From Escherichia coli O157:H7 (GTDB lineage: Bacteria > Pseudomonadota > Gammaproteobacteria > Enterobacterales > Enterobacteriaceae), in NCBI RefSeq assembly GCF_013167455.1, contig NZ_CP038328.1: a DNA stretch of 64,000 nucleotides; one strand, 5' to 3'. The notes under the pieces were generated by a model. The model was given only the letters and a program-made list of their open reading frames with translations, did no database searches and was not told the origin of the DNA. The translations under genes and the position numbers were made by a program. Below, piece after piece: positions 39,056-63,024 of this stretch. The first letter of the stretch is position 1. Each line of letters opens with the position of its first letter.

Positions 39056-41134
39056 TTAAATCAATGCCGATTTATCAATTCCCAGTCGCTTCATCCGTGA
39101 CAGCAGGGTCGTGCGTTTCAGCCCCAGACGTTGCGCAGCGCCTTTAGGCCCGGCAACCACGCCGTTAGTTTCTTTCAGCACGCGAACAATCAACTGATAT
39201 TCATCTTCGCCCTCCTGAGCGACAACCGTTGCGGCAGGCGGCGTTTCAGGCTCCGGTAAAGCAATATCTGGCAATGACAGCTGCAGCACGTTGCCGCGTG
39301 TTAGCAATACCGCGCGCTCAATGACGTTTTCCAGTTCGCGTACGTTACCCGGCCACTCCATATTGCTCAAGGTGCGCAACGTCTCGGCAGGAATGCTGTC
39401 GATATTGCGCCCCAGACGACGGGCAATTTTGAAGGTAAAGGCTTTCGCCAGCAGCGGAATATCTTCCGGACGCTCGCGTAGTGGCGGCAGGTGAATCGGG
39501 AATACGTTCAGGCGGTAATAGAGATCGCTACGGAACTCACGGTCGGCGACCATTTTTTTCAGATCGCGGTTAGTCGCGGCGATTAGACGCACGTCCGTCT
39601 GAATGATTTTGTTGCTGCCGAGGCGTTCAAACTCCTGTTCCTGCAATACACGCAGCAACTTCGGCTGTAACTCCAGTGGCATATCGCCCACTTCGTCGAG
39701 GAACAGGGAGCTTTTATCCGCCAGTTCAAAACGACCGATACGCTGGGCGCTGGCACCGGTAAAAGCCCCACGCTCATGACCAAACAGATCGCTCTCCAGC
39801 AATCCGGCAGGCATCGCCGCGCAGTTCATTTTGACCATGCGGCGATTATTACGCCCACTGAGATTATGGATAGCACGGGCAATCAGCTCTTTACCCGTGC
39901 CAGTTTCACCGAGGATCAGCACGGTACTGTCACTTTGCGCCACCATTTCAACTTGTTTAAGCACGCTGTACATGGCTTCGCTGCGGCCAATAATCTCGCC
40001 AAATTCACTATCAACATTGTTGAGCTGCTCGGTCAGGGCGAGGTTTTCATCAACCAGCCGTTCTTTCAGACGATGGATTTCCTGATAGGCGAGGGCGTTA
40101 TCGACAGCGATTGCCACACGTTCGGCAATCTGGCGCAGTAAATTCAGATTGGTAGTGGTAAACACTTTCTCTTCACATTGCGCCAGTTTCAGCACGCCCA
40201 GCATGGTGTCGCCAGACATCAGCGGTAACAGGCACAAGGTTTGAATCTGGTTGCCCCAGGTATCGAACAACATGCGTTCATAGGGGGCTAAATCATCCCG
40301 CTCGTGGAGATTAATCAGCAGCATCTCTTTACTTTTGAACACGCGTTCGGTGAGGGTTCCGGCTTCATCGACTTCGCTCTGTTCGTGGGCGGGATGCTGT
40401 TTATCAAGATAGTGAGTGGAGTAGATGTTGAGTTTGTTTTTACGGTGGCTGCGTAAGACGATACTGATATCGTCAATATCGAAATAGTAATGGATTTCTT
40501 TGGCGACTTCGCTGACCAGTTCGTCCATATCCAGGCGGGAAAGCACCGCGTTGGTGATGGCGACCAGGATGCGGAAGTTATCGCGTTCCCGGCATAACAA
40601 CTCATAGTCGACATTGTTAACGACGCGACTCTGGATTTGTTCGGTGACGACAGAAACGATCTGCGTAAATGTTTGCAGACGATTGAACTCTTTTTCGCTC
40701 CAGGGGCGATCGTCATAACGAATAAATTCACAGCCACCAAAAATATGCCCTTCCGCCGCCAGTGGCATCAGGCAATAGTGACCAAATTTTGGGTATAGCC
40801 CACCTGCGGCCAGCTGCGGCCAGGTTTCACAAAATTCTTCGTAACTGCAATGCAACGTATCAGGGCGCGACAAAATGCTGCGTACCGGACCGTGTGCCAG
40901 AACAGTTTCGTCTTCATATTTAATGGGGGTGTCTTTTTCACGCGATGCGTAATAAGACGCACGTTGAGTCTGCGCTTGCCACAACACAATAGCCGCGTTG
41001 TCGGCGAGCGCAGAACGCTTTACCAGTTGCGAAAGAGCCTCACACAGCGAGGCCAGATCGGGCTGCTGCAATAGTGTCCGAGTGATGTCGAACAACCCTT
41101 GCTGTCCGAGATCACTCATCGGTGTATATGACAT
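39056..41134 (-). CDS. fhlA: formate hydrogenlyase transcriptional activator (sigma54 EBP)
   Basis: ORF 39056..41170; start at MSYTPMSD giving 692 aa; GAF and AAA+ (GETGTGKE) domains. Confidence 0.9.
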   Translation of the reverse strand: MSYTPMSDLGQQGLFDITRTLLQQPDLASLCEALSQLVKRSALADNAAIVLWQAQTQRASYYASREKDTPIKYEDETVLAHGPVRSILSRPDTLHCSYEEFCETWPQLAAGGLYPKFGHYCLMPLAAEGHIFGGCEFIRYDDRPWSEKEFNRLQTFTQIVSVVTEQIQSRVVNNVDYELLCRERDNFRILVAITNAVLSRLDMDELVSEVAKEIHYYFDIDDISIVLRSHRKNKLNIYSTHYLDKQHPAHEQSEVDEAGTLTERVFKSKEMLLINLHERDDLAPYERMLFDTWGNQIQTLCLLPLMSGDTMLGVLKLAQCEEKVFTTTNLNLLRQIAERVAIAVDNALAYQEIHRLKERLVDENLALTEQLNNVDSEFGEIIGRSEAMYSVLKQVEMVAQSDSTVLILGETGTGKELIARAIHNLSGRNNRRMVKMNCAAMPAGLLESDLFGHERGAFTGASAQRIGRFELADKSSLFLDEVGDMPLELQPKLLRVLQEQEFERLGSNKIIQTDVRLIAATNRDLKKMVADREFRSDLYYRLNVFPIHLPPLRERPEDIPLLAKAFTFKIARRLGRNIDSIPAETLRTLSNMEWPGNVRELENVIERAVLLTRGNVLQLSLPDIALPEPETPPAATVVAQEGEDEYQLIVRVLKETNGVVAGPKGAAQRLGLKRTTLLSRMKRLGIDKSALI

Positions 41135-44474: not shown

Positions 44475-44825
44475 TCACTCCTGGTCTATTTCTATCCGCC
44501 GAATCTGTAAACCGTCGTCTGCCACAATCTGTAGCATGTCACCATGACACTGTGGACAGCGGCGGACGCGCTGGGTCAGTAGCGTCACATACTGTTGGCA
44601 TGTTTCACACCAGCATTCGGCCTCTTGTTCTTCGAGGTGCAGTTTACAACCTTCCGCCACGCTGCCGCGGCAAACCAGATCAAAACAAAAGGCAAGAGAG
44701 CTGGTTTCGACACAAGAAAATGCGCCAATTTTGAGCCAGACCCCAGTTACGCGTTTTGCGCCGTGTTTTGCGGCCTGCTGTTCGATCAATTCCAGTGCCC
44801 GTTGGCAGAGGGTTATTTCGTGCAT
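44475..44825 (-). CDS. hypA: hydrogenase nickel incorporation protein HypA
   Basis: ORF 44475..44837; start at MHEITLCQ giving 116 aa; CxxC...CxxC. Confidence 0.85.
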   Translation of the reverse strand: MHEITLCQRALELIEQQAAKHGAKRVTGVWLKIGAFSCVETSSLAFCFDLVCRGSVAEGCKLHLEEQEAECWCETCQQYVTLLTQRVRRCPQCHGDMLQIVADDGLQIRRIEIDQE

Positions 44826-44855
44826 ATCGCCTCCCATTAACTATTGCCAGCTACA

Positions 44856-44871
44856 AGCAATAATTGTGCCA
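44856..44871 (-). promoter_or_regulatory. sigma54 -24/-12 promoter for hyp operon
   Basis: minus strand TGGCACaattatTGCT (GG and GC correctly spaced), about 30 bp upstream of hypA ATG. Confidence 0.6.
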
Positions 44872-44984
44872 GTGTTGATTATCCCTGCAGTGAATAATGT
44901 CGATGATGTCGAAATGACACGTCGACACGGCGACGAAATTCACCAAAATCTTAAAAATCGCTTTAATAATAATAAATTAAAAGT

Positions 44985-45000
44985 TGGCACAAAAAATGCT
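44985..45000 (+). promoter_or_regulatory. sigma54 -24/-12 promoter for hyc operon
   Basis: TGGCACaaaaaaTGCT upstream of hycA ATG 45037. Confidence 0.65.
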
Positions 45001-45036
45001 TAAAGCTGGCATCTCTGTTAAACGGGTAACCTGACA

Positions 45037-45498
45037 ATGACTATTTGGGAAATAAGCGAGAAAGCCGATTACATCGCACAGCGGCATCGTCGCCTACAGG
45101 ACCAGTGGCACATCTACTGCAATTCGCTGGTTCAGGGGATCACGTTATCGAAAGCGCGCCTGCATCACGCCATGAGCTGCGCGCCGGACAAAGAACTCTG
45201 TTTCGTCCTTTTTGAACATTTTCGTATTTACGTCACCCTGGCGGATGGCTTTAACAGCCACACCATCGAGTATTACGTCGAAACAAAAGATGGCGAAGAC
45301 AAACAGCGGATTGCGCAGGCGCAACTGAGCATTGACGGCATGATTGATGGCAAGGTCAACATCCGCGATCGCGAACAGGTTCTGGAACACTATCTCGAAA
45401 AAATCGCTGGCGTTTACGACAGCTTATACACCGCTATTGAAAACAATGTGCCGGTGAATTTAAGCCAACTGGTAAAGGGACAAAGCCCGGCAGCATGA
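45037..45498 (+). CDS. hycA: formate hydrogenlyase regulatory protein HycA
   Basis: 153-aa ORF. Confidence 0.85.
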   Translation: MTIWEISEKADYIAQRHRRLQDQWHIYCNSLVQGITLSKARLHHAMSCAPDKELCFVLFEHFRIYVTLADGFNSHTIEYYVETKDGEDKQRIAQAQLSIDGMIDGKVNIRDREQVLEHYLEKIAGVYDSLYTAIENNVPVNLSQLVKGQSPAA

Positions 45499-45622
45499 GC
45501 TGAGGCTTTGCCCGTTTTGCAGGCGTTACGCCTGTTTGGGGATGGGCGTGTCGATGAGTGTCGAAAATGACATTTCATCGGCATGTTTTCGTCAAAAATG
45601 ACAATCACCTGAGGAATGCCTG

Positions 45623-46234
45623 GTGAATCGTTTTGTAATTGCTGACTCCACGCTCTGTATCGGTTGCCACACTTGTGAGGCCGCCTGTTCAGAGACGCAT
45701 CGCCAGCACGGCCTGCAATCAATGCCGCGCCTGAGAGTGATGCTAAATGAAAAAGAATCTGCGCCGCAGCTCTGTCACCACTGTGAAGATGCACCCTGCG
45801 CGGTGGTCTGCCCGGTTAACGCCATCACCCGCGTTGATGGGGCCGTGCAGTTGAATGAAAGCCTGTGCGTAAGCTGCAAGCTGTGCGGCATCGCCTGCCC
45901 GTTTGGCGCAATTGAATTTTCCGGCAGCCGTCCGCTGGATATTCCTGCAAATGCCAATACCCCGAAAGCGCCACCGGCACCGCCTGCTCCGGCGCGTATC
46001 AGTACGCTGCTTGACTGGGTGCCGGGTATTCGCGCGATCGCCGTCAAATGTGACCTTTGTAGCTTTGATGAACAAGGTCCGGCCTGCGTGCGGATGTGCC
46101 CGACTAAAGCCCTGCATCTGGTGGATAACACCGATATCGCCCGCGTCAGCAAACGTAAGCGTGAGCTGACCTTTAACACGGACTTTGGCGATCTCACCTT
46201 GTTTCAGCAGGCTCAAAGTGGAGAGGCTAAATGA
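45623..46234 (+). CDS. hycB: formate hydrogenlyase Fe-S subunit HycB
   Basis: 203-aa ORF; 4Fe-4S cysteine clusters. Confidence 0.9.
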   Translation: MNRFVIADSTLCIGCHTCEAACSETHRQHGLQSMPRLRVMLNEKESAPQLCHHCEDAPCAVVCPVNAITRVDGAVQLNESLCVSCKLCGIACPFGAIEFSGSRPLDIPANANTPKAPPAPPAPARISTLLDWVPGIRAIAVKCDLCSFDEQGPACVRMCPTKALHLVDNTDIARVSKRKRELTFNTDFGDLTLFQQAQSGEAK

Positions 46235-56010: not shown

Positions 56011-56169
56011 ACAAAATCATGAATAGTTGTAACCAAATGAGCAAGAGAGTTAATTGTTCATTTTTTATATTTGTGAAACCGGTCACCTGAATATTTTTCC
56101 CGCCGATTGCGCAAGGACAATCGGTAAACGGTGCAGTACACTGCGTTGATTGCGTGTAAAGGGATGAAA

Positions 56170-57183
56170 ATGATGACGACGATGCTGGAAGTGGCGAAGC
56201 GCGCCGGGGTTTCAAAAGCGACCGTTTCCCGCGTGCTTTCAGGTAATGGCTACGTCAGCCAGGAGACTAAAGATCGCGTGTTTCAGGCGGTAGAAGAGAG
56301 CGGTTACCGTCCAAACTTGCTGGCGCGCAATCTGTCGGCGAAAAGTACCCAGACGCTGGGGCTGGTAGTGACTAACACGCTTTACCACGGCATTTATTTT
56401 AGTGAATTACTGTTTCATGCCGCGCGAATGGCGGAAGAGAAAGGGCGGCAGTTGCTATTGGCAGATGGTAAACACAGCGCCGAAGAAGAGCGCCAGGCGA
56501 TTCAGTATCTGCTGGATTTGCGCTGCGACGCCATTATGATTTACCCGCGTTTTTTAAGTGTGGATGAGATCGATGACATCATTGACGCGCACAGTCAGCC
56601 GATAATGGTGCTTAATCGCCGCCTGCGCAAAAATAGCAGCCATAGCGTCTGGTGCGATCATAAACAGACCAGCTTTAACGCCGTGGCAGAGTTGATAAAC
56701 GCCGGGCATCAGGAGATTGCTTTTCTTACCGGCTCGATGGATTCCCCCACCAGCGTTGAACGTCTTGCCGGATATAAAGACGCGCTGGCGCAGCATGGTA
56801 TTGCGCTCAATGAAAAACTTATCGCTAACGGTAAATGGACGCCCGCCAGCGGGGCCGAAGGGGTAGAAACGTTGCTCGAACGTGGGGCTAAATTTAGCGC
56901 GTTAGTTGCCAGTAACGACGATATGGCGATAGGTGCGATGAAAGCGTTACACAAGCGCGGCGTAGCGGTGCCAGAGCAGGTGTCAGTTATCGGATTCGAT
57001 GATATCGCAATTGCCCCCTATATCGTTCCGGCGCTCTCCAGCGTAAAAATTCCGGTGACTGAGATGATTCAGGAAATTATTGGACGGCTGATTTTTATGC
57101 TCGATGGCGGGGATTTCTCACCGCCGAAAACCTTCAGCGGAAAACTGATCCGCCGCGACTCACTCATTGCTCTTTCGCGATAA
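56170..57183 (+). CDS. ascG: LacI-family repressor AscG
   Basis: ORF 56131..57183; start near MMTTMLEVAKRAGVSKATVSRVL giving about 337 aa; intact. Confidence 0.85.
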   Translation: MMTTMLEVAKRAGVSKATVSRVLSGNGYVSQETKDRVFQAVEESGYRPNLLARNLSAKSTQTLGLVVTNTLYHGIYFSELLFHAARMAEEKGRQLLLADGKHSAEEERQAIQYLLDLRCDAIMIYPRFLSVDEIDDIIDAHSQPIMVLNRRLRKNSSHSVWCDHKQTSFNAVAELINAGHQEIAFLTGSMDSPTSVERLAGYKDALAQHGIALNEKLIANGKWTPASGAEGVETLLERGAKFSALVASNDDMAIGAMKALHKRGVAVPEQVSVIGFDDIAIAPYIVPALSSVKIPVTEMIQEIIGRLIFMLDGGDFSPPKTFSGKLIRRDSLIALSR

Positions 57184-57196
57184 ACATTGTCATCAC

Positions 57197-57231
57197 ATGT
57201 CATCGTCACTAGTGTCGATGACATCTTTTTT
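57197..57231 (+). terminator. rho-independent terminator after ascG
   Basis: atgtcatcg/cgatgacat stem followed by CTTTTTT. Confidence 0.75.
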
Positions 57232-57331
57232 CCTGCATTACAGAAATTAATTTCCTTAAATAACAGCAAATTAAAAACTGGCATGATTTGTGAATGTATC
57301 GGCGCATTAACTGTCATTGCTGGAGAATTTG

Positions 57332-63008: not shown

Positions 63009-63024
63009 TGCAGATTGCGTGCCA
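63009..63024 (-). promoter_or_regulatory. sigma54 -24/-12 promoter of norVW
   Basis: minus strand TGGCACgcaatcTGCA about 50 bp upstream of norV start. Confidence 0.7.

Follow-up and report, generated by a model that had tools for sequence, protein, structure and literature searches.

The near-duplicate elements found upstream of hycA and between hycA and hycB in Escherichia coli O157:H7, together with a third copy, probably represent the recognition cores of two FhlA enhancers (UAS) of the E. coli formate regulon, a reading that we put at a probability of about 0.9 from sequence comparison. The window analysed here, a 64,000-nucleotide stretch of the E. coli chromosome, carries fhlA–hypEDCBA, hycABCDEFGHI and hydN–hypF (Table 1). 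A first-pass annotation had placed the repeats upstream of hycA and between hycA and hycB and had proposed that they were FhlA UAS acting on sigma-54 promoters. Its gene labels were right, both elements being intergenic (hypA–hycA and hycA–hycB), and its proposal is supported by matrix matches, flanking promoters, the presence of fhlA, words common to other FhlA-dependent regions and phylogenetic footprints. Formate-induced expression of formate hydrogenlyase and the hydrogenase maturation machinery is set by FhlA enhancers, which also find use in the engineering of hydrogen-producing E. coli strains. The UAS were reportedly defined at fdhF, hyc, hyp, hydN–hypF and hyf by Birkmann & Boeck in 1989, Lutz et al. 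in 1990, Schlensog et al. in 1994 and Leonhartsberger et al. in 2000. FhlA-enhancer biology is thus already known, published in the 1990s and 2000, and confirming it here adds no new biology; a classical regulatory element was recognised from sequence alone. What we add is the description of both modules as homologous tripartite arrays and their cross-genus pattern, with unequal inner spacing (N5 versus N6) and a near-invariant 16-mer.

Table 1 Features of the hyp–hyc control region and related sites in the window
Feature	Position	Strand	Description and evidence
fhlA	39056–41134	-	Cognate sigma-54 activator, last gene of the hyp operon; annotation and Pfam
hypA	44475–44825	-	Annotation
Sigma-54 (−24/−12) promoter of hypABCDE–fhlA	44856–44871	-	TGGCACAATTATTGCT; RpoN matrix 19.1 bits, best in the window; ChIP-seq site OS28
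UAS1 core, predicted FhlA site	44898–44927	.	Quasi-palindrome TGTCGA-TGA-TGTC-GAAAT-GACA-CG-TCGACA; includes the repeat at 44900–44919
UAS1 distal half-site-like element	44931–44943	.	CGACGAAATTCAC; module-to-module alignment
A/T-rich spacer between UAS1 and the hyc promoter	44944–44984	.	Presumed IHF bending region; weak consensus matches and literature
Sigma-54 (−24/−12) promoter of hycABCDEFGHI	44985–45000	+	TGGCACAAAAAATGCT; RpoN matrix 15.4 bits; ChIP-seq site OS27
hycA	45037–45498	+	Anti-activator of the formate regulon, between both modules; annotation, Pfam HycA_repressor E = 1e-90
UAS2 first site, predicted FhlA site	45549–45583	.	Quasi-palindrome TGTCGA-TGAG-TGTC-GAAAAT-GACA-TTTCA-TCGGCA; includes the repeat at 45551–45572
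UAS2 second site	45587–45603	.	TTTCGTCAAAAATGACA; the third copy, 31 bp from the first core; repeat family D5
hycB	45623–46234	+	Annotation
Candidate FhlA site upstream of hydN	57188–57223	.	TGTCATCACATGTCATCGTCACTAGTGTCGATGACA; common words; matrix ≤6.3 bits, weak
Sigma-54 promoter of hydN–hypF	57279–57294	+	TGGCATGATTTGTGAA; RpoN matrix 10.9 bits; ChIP-seq site OS26

The near-duplicate is real: TCGATGATGTCGAAATGACA was found at 44900–44919 and TCGATGAGTGTCGAAAATGACA at 45551–45572, as first described, and the repeat reaches 2 bp further left than the 20–22-bp element noted initially. Gapped alignment of TGTCGATGA-TGTCG-AAATGACA (44898–44919) with TGTCGATGAGTGTCGAAAATGACA (45549–45572) gave identity in 22 of 24 columns, with two indels of 1 nt each. 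The local alignment score of 36 was reached in 0 of 2,000 mononucleotide shuffles of both intergenic regions (mean 15.7, s.d. 2.2, maximum 28), and the repeat is therefore far beyond chance. An ungapped 13-mer search allowing up to two mismatches returned three matches against 1.9 expected, which is non-significant alone; an indel sets the first copy apart and makes this search uninformative, and the gapped alignment and shuffles were used instead. The third copy is present as an ungapped 12/13 match to the second, 31 bp downstream of it, but its reported position was off by one, as the 14-mer CGTCAAAAATGACA occupies 45590–45603 whereas 45591–45603 reads GTCAAAAATGACA.

The repeats noticed first form the left two-thirds of larger, 30–35-bp quasi-palindromes. 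The two modules, UAS1 and UAS2, align end to end over approximately 46–55 bp, each consisting of a quasi-palindrome of TGTC/GACA tetramers followed by a downstream half-site, and as direct repeats they bracket a 651-bp segment containing the hyc promoter and hycA. Their inner spacing is unequal, TGTC-N5-GACA in UAS1 versus N6 in UAS2, and in most genera UAS2 also has N5. Module-to-module alignment identified the element at 44931–44943 as the UAS1 counterpart of the third copy. This element includes GACGAAA, a word common to the hycA–hycB region and fdhF, and is kept only in Escherichia, Salmonella and some Citrobacter; the UAS1 core is kept across genera and is identical in sequence in a K-12-like strain. 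The second site of UAS2 resembles TGTTTTTCGTCAGAG upstream of fdhF.

Next to these structural features, we scored the window with an FhlA site matrix derived from the 13 footprinted sites of Schlensog 1994 and Leonhartsberger 2000 (PMC7658346 Table 2). The top two matches in 64 kb on both strands (128 kb) fell inside both elements, TGTCGAAAATGACA at 45559–45572 with 17.9 bits and TGTCGATGATGTCG at 44898–44911 with 16.3 bits, a test that is partly circular in that these very E. coli sequences are, in all likelihood, among the 13 matrix sites. The second site of UAS2 (45590–45603) scored 11.8–12.1 bits on both strands. The fdhF, hydN and hyfA regions scored weakly (≤10 bits), too weakly for the five E. 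coli control regions to yield the 13 training sites. The idealised 16-bp FhlA consensus CATTTCGTACGAAATG (Leonhartsberger 2000, as quoted in PMC4987338) was non-discriminating: its best local match was 11/16, at 45585–45600, and 11 other positions in the window also reached 11/16 and one reached 12/16. Half-site words, such as CGAAATG, are present.

Words common to FhlA-dependent control regions were in excess. Among five such regions (those of the two modules, fdhF, hydN and hyfA), 12 7-mers were common to at least three, compared with 1.4 ± 1.2 (maximum 6) in shuffles. Of these words, nine belong to the element itself or to its flanks inside the two modules: GTGTCGA, TGTCGAA, TGTCGAT, GTCGATG, TCGATGA, CGTGTCG, GACGAAA, AATGACA and AAAAATG. 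GTGTCGA occurred in four of the five regions, and those with GACGAAA include fdhF. Reviews describe hyc, hyp, hydN–hypF and fdhF as FhlA/sigma-54 dependent, with the enhancer consensus from Leonhartsberger 2000. The candidate site upstream of hydN has GTGTCGA, TGTCGATGA and AATGACA in common with both modules and lies approximately 100 bp upstream of the hydN sigma-54 promoter.

The best RpoN-matrix matches flanking UAS1 are the divergent hyc and hyp promoters, which form an inverted repeat (I1); the hyp motif GCAATA...TGCCA and the TGGCA and TGCT of the hyc promoter are invariant across genera. The hydN–hypF, hyc and hyp promoters are identical to the sigma-54 ChIP-seq sites OS26, OS27 and OS28, respectively, of PMC4591121. 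The cognate activator is encoded in the same genome, and Pfam recognised GAF, Sigma54_activat, AAA_lid_14 and HTH_8 domains in FhlA. Measured from the hyc start site, the centre of UAS1 lies at −97 to −105, which is canonical for a bEBP; measured from the divergent hyp start site, it lies at approximately −60. Enhancers of bEBPs typically lie approximately 70–150 bp from the promoter but work over kilobases (PMC3844500). UAS2, downstream of the hyc promoter, is approximately 720–750 bp upstream of the hyp start site and approximately 555–590 bp downstream of the hyc start site, a non-canonical distance from every promoter yet inside the known bEBP range. Because just 20 bp remain to the hycB start codon, UAS2 cannot serve a promoter before hycB. 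In the A/T-rich spacer, the IHF consensus WATCAANNNNTTR gave only 2-mismatch matches (at 44941–44987) and hence no clear site, and most substitutions between O157 and K-12 in this intergenic region fall within the spacer. Table 1 of PMC2636881 names IHF among the activators of hyc and hyp.

A sigma-54-like motif inside hycA (45106–45121, 15.2 bits), considered as a nearby target of UAS2, was rejected as a selected promoter. The motif stems from conserved W-x-x-Y-C codons, and in 9 of 35 species its −12 GC is lost through a synonymous TGT; nor does the motif appear in the main-text ChIP-seq tables of PMC4591121.

Across approximately 80 Enterobacteriaceae species, both elements stand out as phylogenetic footprints. 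At the first site of UAS2, GTGTCGA...GTGTCGAAA...TGACA is kept in all genera. The 16-mer of the second site, TTTCGTCAAAAATGAC, occurs without a mismatch in 76 of the 80 species loci and is unchanged in all 31 non-Escherichia sequences, a near-invariance that exceeds that of the other FhlA tetramers. The conservation profile of the 31 non-Escherichia species peaks exactly on the promoters and the UAS tetramers, with the adjoining intergenic DNA diverged, and the spacer GATGA, common to both modules, is specific to Escherichia. Of 5426 complete E. coli genomes, all but one (5425) carry both regions.

These observations suggest how the modules may act. FhlA, with its GAF sensor, AAA+ sigma-54-interaction domain and C-terminal HTH, would bind the tetramer arrays as an oligomer, each array being a 30–35-bp quasi-palindrome followed approximately 10 bp on by a CG(A/T)C-AAA-type site. 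Formate-bound FhlA would then contact the sigma-54 RNA polymerase closed complex at the −24/−12 promoters by DNA looping, aided by IHF bending in the A/T-rich spacer, and ATP hydrolysis would lead to open-complex formation. We propose that UAS1 (44898–44943) is the enhancer for hycA–I and may add to hyp activation, and that UAS2 (45549–45603) most likely works at a distance on the hyp promoter. As the hyp operon includes fhlA, such an action of UAS2 on hyp would amount to positive autoregulation. Schlensog et al. reportedly assigned the hycA–hycB site as the hyp UAS in 1994, and Hopper in the same year is said to have described IHF involvement at hyc; our full-text literature search found no open paper that names the promoter served by the hycA–hycB site. 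For FhlA binding, formate dependence, the role of IHF and the promoter served by each module, we draw on the literature or infer. As relayed in the papers that cite them, Schlensog 1994, Hopper 1994 and Leonhartsberger 2000 described direct binding by FhlA, together with activation that required formate and FhlA and disappeared when the site was deleted.

The module between hycA and hycB might have a second purpose. It is possible, although doubtful, that it combines an FhlA enhancer on DNA with a palindrome and TTTCGTCAAAAATGAC that act in the hyc mRNA, or with the site of a second factor. In the RNA, the module could attenuate transcription through a hairpin and U-tract, determine processing or stability, or control the translation of hycB. 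If true, a dual-purpose module would explain why the 16-mer is conserved more strictly than every other FhlA tetramer and why some lineages show slight covariation between the stem arms.

We regard as quite improbable the stronger claim that this copy acts mainly at the RNA level, through a hairpin and GUUUUCGU in the hyc mRNA that would form a partial intrinsic terminator or a processing/stability element setting the hycA:hycB–I ratio, its likeness to the upstream copy being secondary. The hycA–hycB intergenic RNA folded at −53.8 kcal/mol, compared with −38.3 ± 3.8 in shuffles (z = −4.1), and the 45548–45584 hairpin alone at −19.1 kcal/mol. Perfect or near-perfect extended stems with differing spacers were found in several lineages (−31.3, −26.0 and −21.2 kcal/mol in L028, L079 and L026, respectively). 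Arm complementarity within species was 7.44/10, compared with 7.07 ± 0.09 (maximum 7.34) when arms were permuted between species, but this excess is small and the statistic carries no correction for phylogeny. RNAalifold, however, retained only the invariant TGTC/GACA pairs with 0 compensatory changes, so that the hairpin and U-tract do not show the compensatory conservation of a terminator or structured RNA, and the right arm is missing in Enterobacter, Lelliottia, Huaxiibacter and Pseudenterobacter, genera that nonetheless have TGTCGA-N-TGTCGA and the invariant 16-mer. In the terminator scan the hycA–hycB hairpin was not called, and Rfam gave no match for the element beyond one chance-level miRNA match (E = 0.17). 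A dyad is expected anyway for an oligomeric DNA-binding protein, a like module lies upstream of hycA, where the hyc promoter does not transcribe it, and attenuating the structural genes relative to their anti-activator would make little regulatory sense.

It is very improbable that the main protein bound at these sites is not FhlA but its paralogue HyfR or the anti-activator HycA. HyfR is a close paralogue of FhlA with a similar HTH and a reported overlap with FhlA at hyf, and the near-invariance of TTTCGTCAAAAATGAC could reflect an extra constraint. Yet the matrix derives from FhlA-footprinted sites and hyc and hyp are listed as FhlA-dependent; to our knowledge, hyf and HyfR are missing from many genera that retain the sites, and in HycA Pfam finds the HycA_repressor family only, with no recognised DNA-binding domain. 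It is hardly credible that the similarity is a chance repeat, which the shuffles exclude, or a functionless remnant of a neutral duplication in which the hyc promoter and hycA were inserted between the copies, as the direct repeats around the 651-bp segment and the Escherichia-specific spacer might suggest: the tetramers and the 16-mer persist across genera in which HycA identity falls to 63% and flanking intergenic DNA has diverged, which excludes neutrality, and a duplication origin would in any case be compatible with present function and is no true rival.

Read as FhlA enhancers, the modules match the known UAS of the E. coli formate regulon in locus and organism; they hold the best site-matrix matches here and are paired with sigma-54 promoters identical to the mapped ones, and nothing substantive differs. 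They are also like the short inverted tetramer arrays of NorR (GT-N7-AC, three copies, at norV) and GlrR (TGTC-N10-GACA, three copies, at glmY and glmZ), which, as with FhlA, lie approximately 100 bp upstream of a −24/−12 promoter, often with IHF between (consensus table of PMC4987338). Unlike these, they have the FhlA-type spacing TGTC-N5/6-GACA rather than N7 or N10 and a different activator, and one FhlA module lies inside a neighbouring operon, approximately 0.7 kb from the promoter that it presumably serves. The sigma-54 promoter of norV is also located in the window, at 63009–63024.

The near-duplicate element at 44900–44919 and 45551–45572, with a further copy at 45591–45603, had been read in the first-pass annotation as sites for FhlA, the formate-sensing sigma-54 activator. 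All three strings were confirmed, the third, taken as a 14-mer, occupying 45590–45603. The repeat reaches two bases farther left than annotated: TGTCGATGA-TGTCG-AAATGACA (44898–44919) can be aligned with TGTCGATGAGTGTCGAAAATGACA (45549–45572) by allowing two single-base indels, and 22 of the 24 columns then match. Local alignment of the 211-bp hypA–hycA spacer with the 124-bp hycA–hycB spacer gave a best score of 36, compared with 15.7 ± 2.2 (maximum 28) for shuffled spacers, of which 0/2,000 reached 36; the repeat is real and chance is ruled out. The third copy, GTCAAAAATGACA, matches the repeat ungapped at 12 of 13 positions, 31 bp past GTCGAAAATGACA. These elements are portions of two larger homologous modules, alignable end to end, which we call UAS1 (hypA–hycA spacer) and UAS2 (hycA–hycB spacer; UAS, upstream activating sequence). 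Both open with a quasi-palindrome made of four short blocks and both end in a further site, so that the third element is matched by a counterpart in UAS1. In the window, inner spacing is TGTC-N5-GACA at UAS1 versus TGTC-N6-GACA at UAS2, the canonical N6 in UAS1 being found instead between its first two TGTC blocks. Across the species loci compared, UAS1 (44907–44919) keeps N5 in all genera; at UAS2 (45559–45572), Escherichia, Salmonella, K. pneumoniae and Raoultella have N6, and most of the remaining genera have N5. FhlA seems to accept ±1 bp in this spacing, or else to recognise different pairs of tetramers.

Modules, FhlA-matrix matches, sigma-54 promoters (with matching ChIP-seq site names) and genes (positions from transferred annotation)
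Feature	Sequence	Position	Strand	Score (bits)	ChIP-seq site
UAS1	TGTCGATGA-TGTCG-AAATGACA---CGTCGACACG---GCGACGAAATTCAC	44898–44943			
UAS1 blocks	TGTCGA, TGTC, GACA, TCGACA	44898, 44907, 44916, 44922			
UAS1 terminal further site	CGACGAAATTCAC	44931–44943			
UAS2	TGTCGATGAGTGTCGAAAATGACATTTCATCGGCATGTTTTCGTCAAAAATGAC	45549–45603			
UAS2 blocks	TGTCGA, TGTC, GACA, TCGGCA	45549, 45559, 45569, 45578			
UAS2 terminal further site	TTTCGTCAAAAATGACA	45587–45603			
FhlA matrix rank 1	TGTCGAAAATGACA	45559–45572		17.9	
FhlA matrix rank 2	TGTCGATGATGTCG	44898–44911		16.3	
FhlA matrix top dozen, third element		45590–45603	both	about 12	
hyp promoter	TGGCACAATTATTGCT	44856–44871	-	19.1	OS28
hyc promoter	TGGCACAAAAAATGCT	44985–45000	+	15.4	OS27
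hydN promoter	TGGCATGATTTGTGAA	57279–57294	+	10.9	OS26
norV promoter	TGGCACGCAATCTGCA	63009–63024	-	16.4	OS25
fhlA		39056–41134	-		
hypEDCB		lying between fhlA and hypA	-		
hypA		44475–44825	-		
hycA		45037–45498	+		
hycB		45623–46234	+		
hycC-I		beyond hycB, downstream	+		
hydN-hypF		starts ~57332	+		

On sequence grounds, we put at about 0.9 the probability that the repeats correspond to the upstream activating sequences classically described for FhlA in the hyc/hyp control region. The earlier interpretation is supported by common words, cross-species footprints and adjacent sigma-54 promoters, the matrix matches being partly circular. The finding itself is already known; what is added, namely that the modules are homologous in all three parts, that their spacing varies between N5 and N6 and that one 16-mer is near-invariant, refines the description and amounts to no new kind of element.

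The 64 kb was scanned on both strands with a 14-position FhlA count matrix (PMC7658346 Table 2) that draws on 13 characterised sites from Schlensog 1994 and Leonhartsberger 2000; its summary form is TG(A/T)C-N6-G(A/T)CA, position 10 always being T. Since the E. coli UAS1 and UAS2 sites very probably went into building the matrix, the scan is partly circular and mainly places them among the published characterised sites. The third-ranked match, TGAAAATGATGACG (56165–56178, +, 14.0 bits), lies at the ascG start with no sigma-54 promoter near and is probably due to chance. The idealised 16-mer CATTTCGTACGAAATG, a consensus credited to Leonhartsberger et al. 2000 in PMC4987338, was non-discriminating, matching 11/16 at 45585–45600 as at eleven unrelated positions, with one at 12/16. 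A non-circular word test compared five FhlA-dependent control regions: the K-12 fdhF and hyfA upstream regions, hydN upstream DNA from the window and both module regions. Twelve 7-mers were common to three or more of these regions, against 1.4 ± 1.2 (maximum 6) in shuffles, and nine of them are words from the element or its flanks inside UAS1/UAS2: GTGTCGA (four regions), TGTCGAA, TGTCGAT, GTCGATG, TCGATGA, CGTGTCG, GACGAAA (fdhF included), AATGACA and AAAAATG. The fdhF region carries a core palindrome, CGTCAAAACTGACG, and its TGTTTTTCGTCAGAG closely resembles TGTTTTCGTCAAAAATG of UAS2; TGTCATCACATGTCATCGTCACTAGTGTCGATGACA is present in the hydN region, ~100 bp upstream of the hydN promoter.

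The hyp, hyc, hydN and norV promoters, located by a sigma-54 matrix scan, are all four letter-for-letter identical to sigma-54 ChIP-seq sites of Bonocora et al. 2015 (PMC4591121), and the hyc and hyp promoters together make up inverted repeat I1. With start sites assumed ~12 nt past the −12 GC, the UAS1 centre is placed at roughly −97 to −105 relative to the start of hyc, a canonical distance, and at roughly −60 to −67 relative to that of hyp, and UAS2 lies about +555 to +590 from the hyc start (about −720 to −750 from the hyp start). UAS1 (44890–44942) and both promoters are unchanged between this window and a K-12-like strain. The textbook mechanism is the best-supported reading: FhlA (Pfam GAF, Sigma54_activat, AAA lid and HTH_8) would bind the tetramer arrays as oligomers; once formate is bound at its N-terminal region, the AAA+ domain would contact the sigma-54 holoenzyme at the −24/−12 promoters via a DNA loop, a contact that would drive open-complex formation. 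HycA (Pfam HycA_repressor) would counteract FhlA. IHF, listed as an activator of hyc and hyp (PMC2636881), is thought to aid looping in the UAS1–hyc promoter spacer, which is A/T-rich and matches the IHF consensus only with two mismatches.

UAS2 cannot serve a promoter before hycB, because just 20 bp separate it from the hycB start codon; the only sigma-54 promoters reachable from it are hyp (~0.73 kb upstream-wise) and hyc (~0.57 kb behind UAS2). Schlensog et al. 1994 and a 2002 review by Leonhartsberger reportedly assigned the hycA–hycB site as the hyp UAS, an assignment we lean towards. UAS2 would then give formate-dependent positive autoregulation, since fhlA belongs to hyp. Enhancers of such activators (bEBPs) can work across these distances, even from downstream (PMC3844500).

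Scanning one genome per species with HycA yielded 80 Enterobacteriaceae loci (HycA identity 100% to 63%). A footprint alignment of 35 representatives revealed sharp footprints in unconserved neighbouring spacer DNA: the hyp promoter GCAATA...TGCCA, the UAS1 core ATG(T/A)CGA-N3-TG(T/A)CGAAATGACA(Y)GTCG, the hyc promoter TGGCA...TGCT and, in UAS2, GTGTCGA-N3/4-GTGTCGAAA(A)TGACA. The UAS2 16-mer TTTCGTCAAAAATGAC (45587–45602) occurs unaltered in 76 of the 80 loci and is invariant in all 31 aligned non-Escherichia sequences, a stricter conservation than that of the near-duplicate element or any other FhlA tetramer. Kosakonia carries a 17–20-nt insertion between this 16-mer and the hycB ribosome-binding site, which argues against a constraint set by distance to that site.

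That UAS2 acts mainly at the RNA level is improbable. The hycA–hycB RNA folds unusually well (z = −4.1, whole spacer), and in hyc mRNA the UAS2 palindrome can form a hairpin of −19.1 kcal/mol (window 45548–45584), followed by GUUUUCGU (within 45548–45592); some genera form perfect extended stems with differing spacer sequences, and arm complementarity within species slightly exceeds that permuted between species (7.44 versus 7.07 ± 0.09), a weak covariation. However, the right arm is missing in Enterobacter, Lelliottia, Huaxiibacter and Pseudenterobacter, which keep the tetramers and 16-mer, RNAalifold keeps invariant pairs only, a terminator scan of UAS2 made no call, its RNA has no Rfam match, and a dyad is in any case expected of an oligomeric protein's site. 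An RNA-level role may be a secondary function of UAS2. Binding of another regulator, HyfR or HycA, at the sites is very unlikely. The modules are direct repeats on either side of the hyc promoter and hycA, and duplication may be their origin, but their conservation excludes neutrality, leaving a neutral duplication remnant with very low probability.

The sigma-54-like motif TGGCACATCTACTGCA inside hycA (45106–45121, +, in hycA orientation) scored 15.2 bits, about as high as the genuine hyc promoter, and is probably a coding by-product: it overlies conserved W-x-x-Y-C codons, its −12 GC is broken by synonymous TGT in 9 of 35 species, and it is absent from the main-text ChIP-seq tables of PMC4591121, although a strong peak is only ~120 bp away. 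An inverted repeat across the hycA stop codon (45469–45487/45504–45522) and a second short hairpin, CAGGCGTTACGCCTG followed by TTTGG (~45520–45538, within 45469–45541), are unconserved outside Escherichia. The 7-mer ATTAACT/AGTTAAT occurs in four of the five FhlA-dependent control regions (44836–44842, 57305–57312, the fdhF 5′ UTR and hyfA upstream), falling in the promoter-to-start-codon interval in hypA, hydN and fdhF with inconsistent orientation; its recurrence may be chance in A/T-rich DNA. The window holds two bEBP genes, fhlA and norR, and four sigma-54 promoters. Of the eight substitutions that distinguish O157 from the K-12-like strain in the hypA–hycA spacer, seven fall at 44943–44970, between UAS1 and the hyc promoter in the presumed IHF bending region, and the eighth at 44889.

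The 1.8 kb surrounding the repeat matches O157-type E. coli chromosomes at 100% identity and is found at 95–100% identity in 5,425 of 5,426 complete E. coli genomes, with the UAS2 region at least 99% identical in 5,309 of the 5,426 records. The hyp–hyc control region is wholly absent from one of these genomes, and one E. coli record has a plasmid-borne copy.
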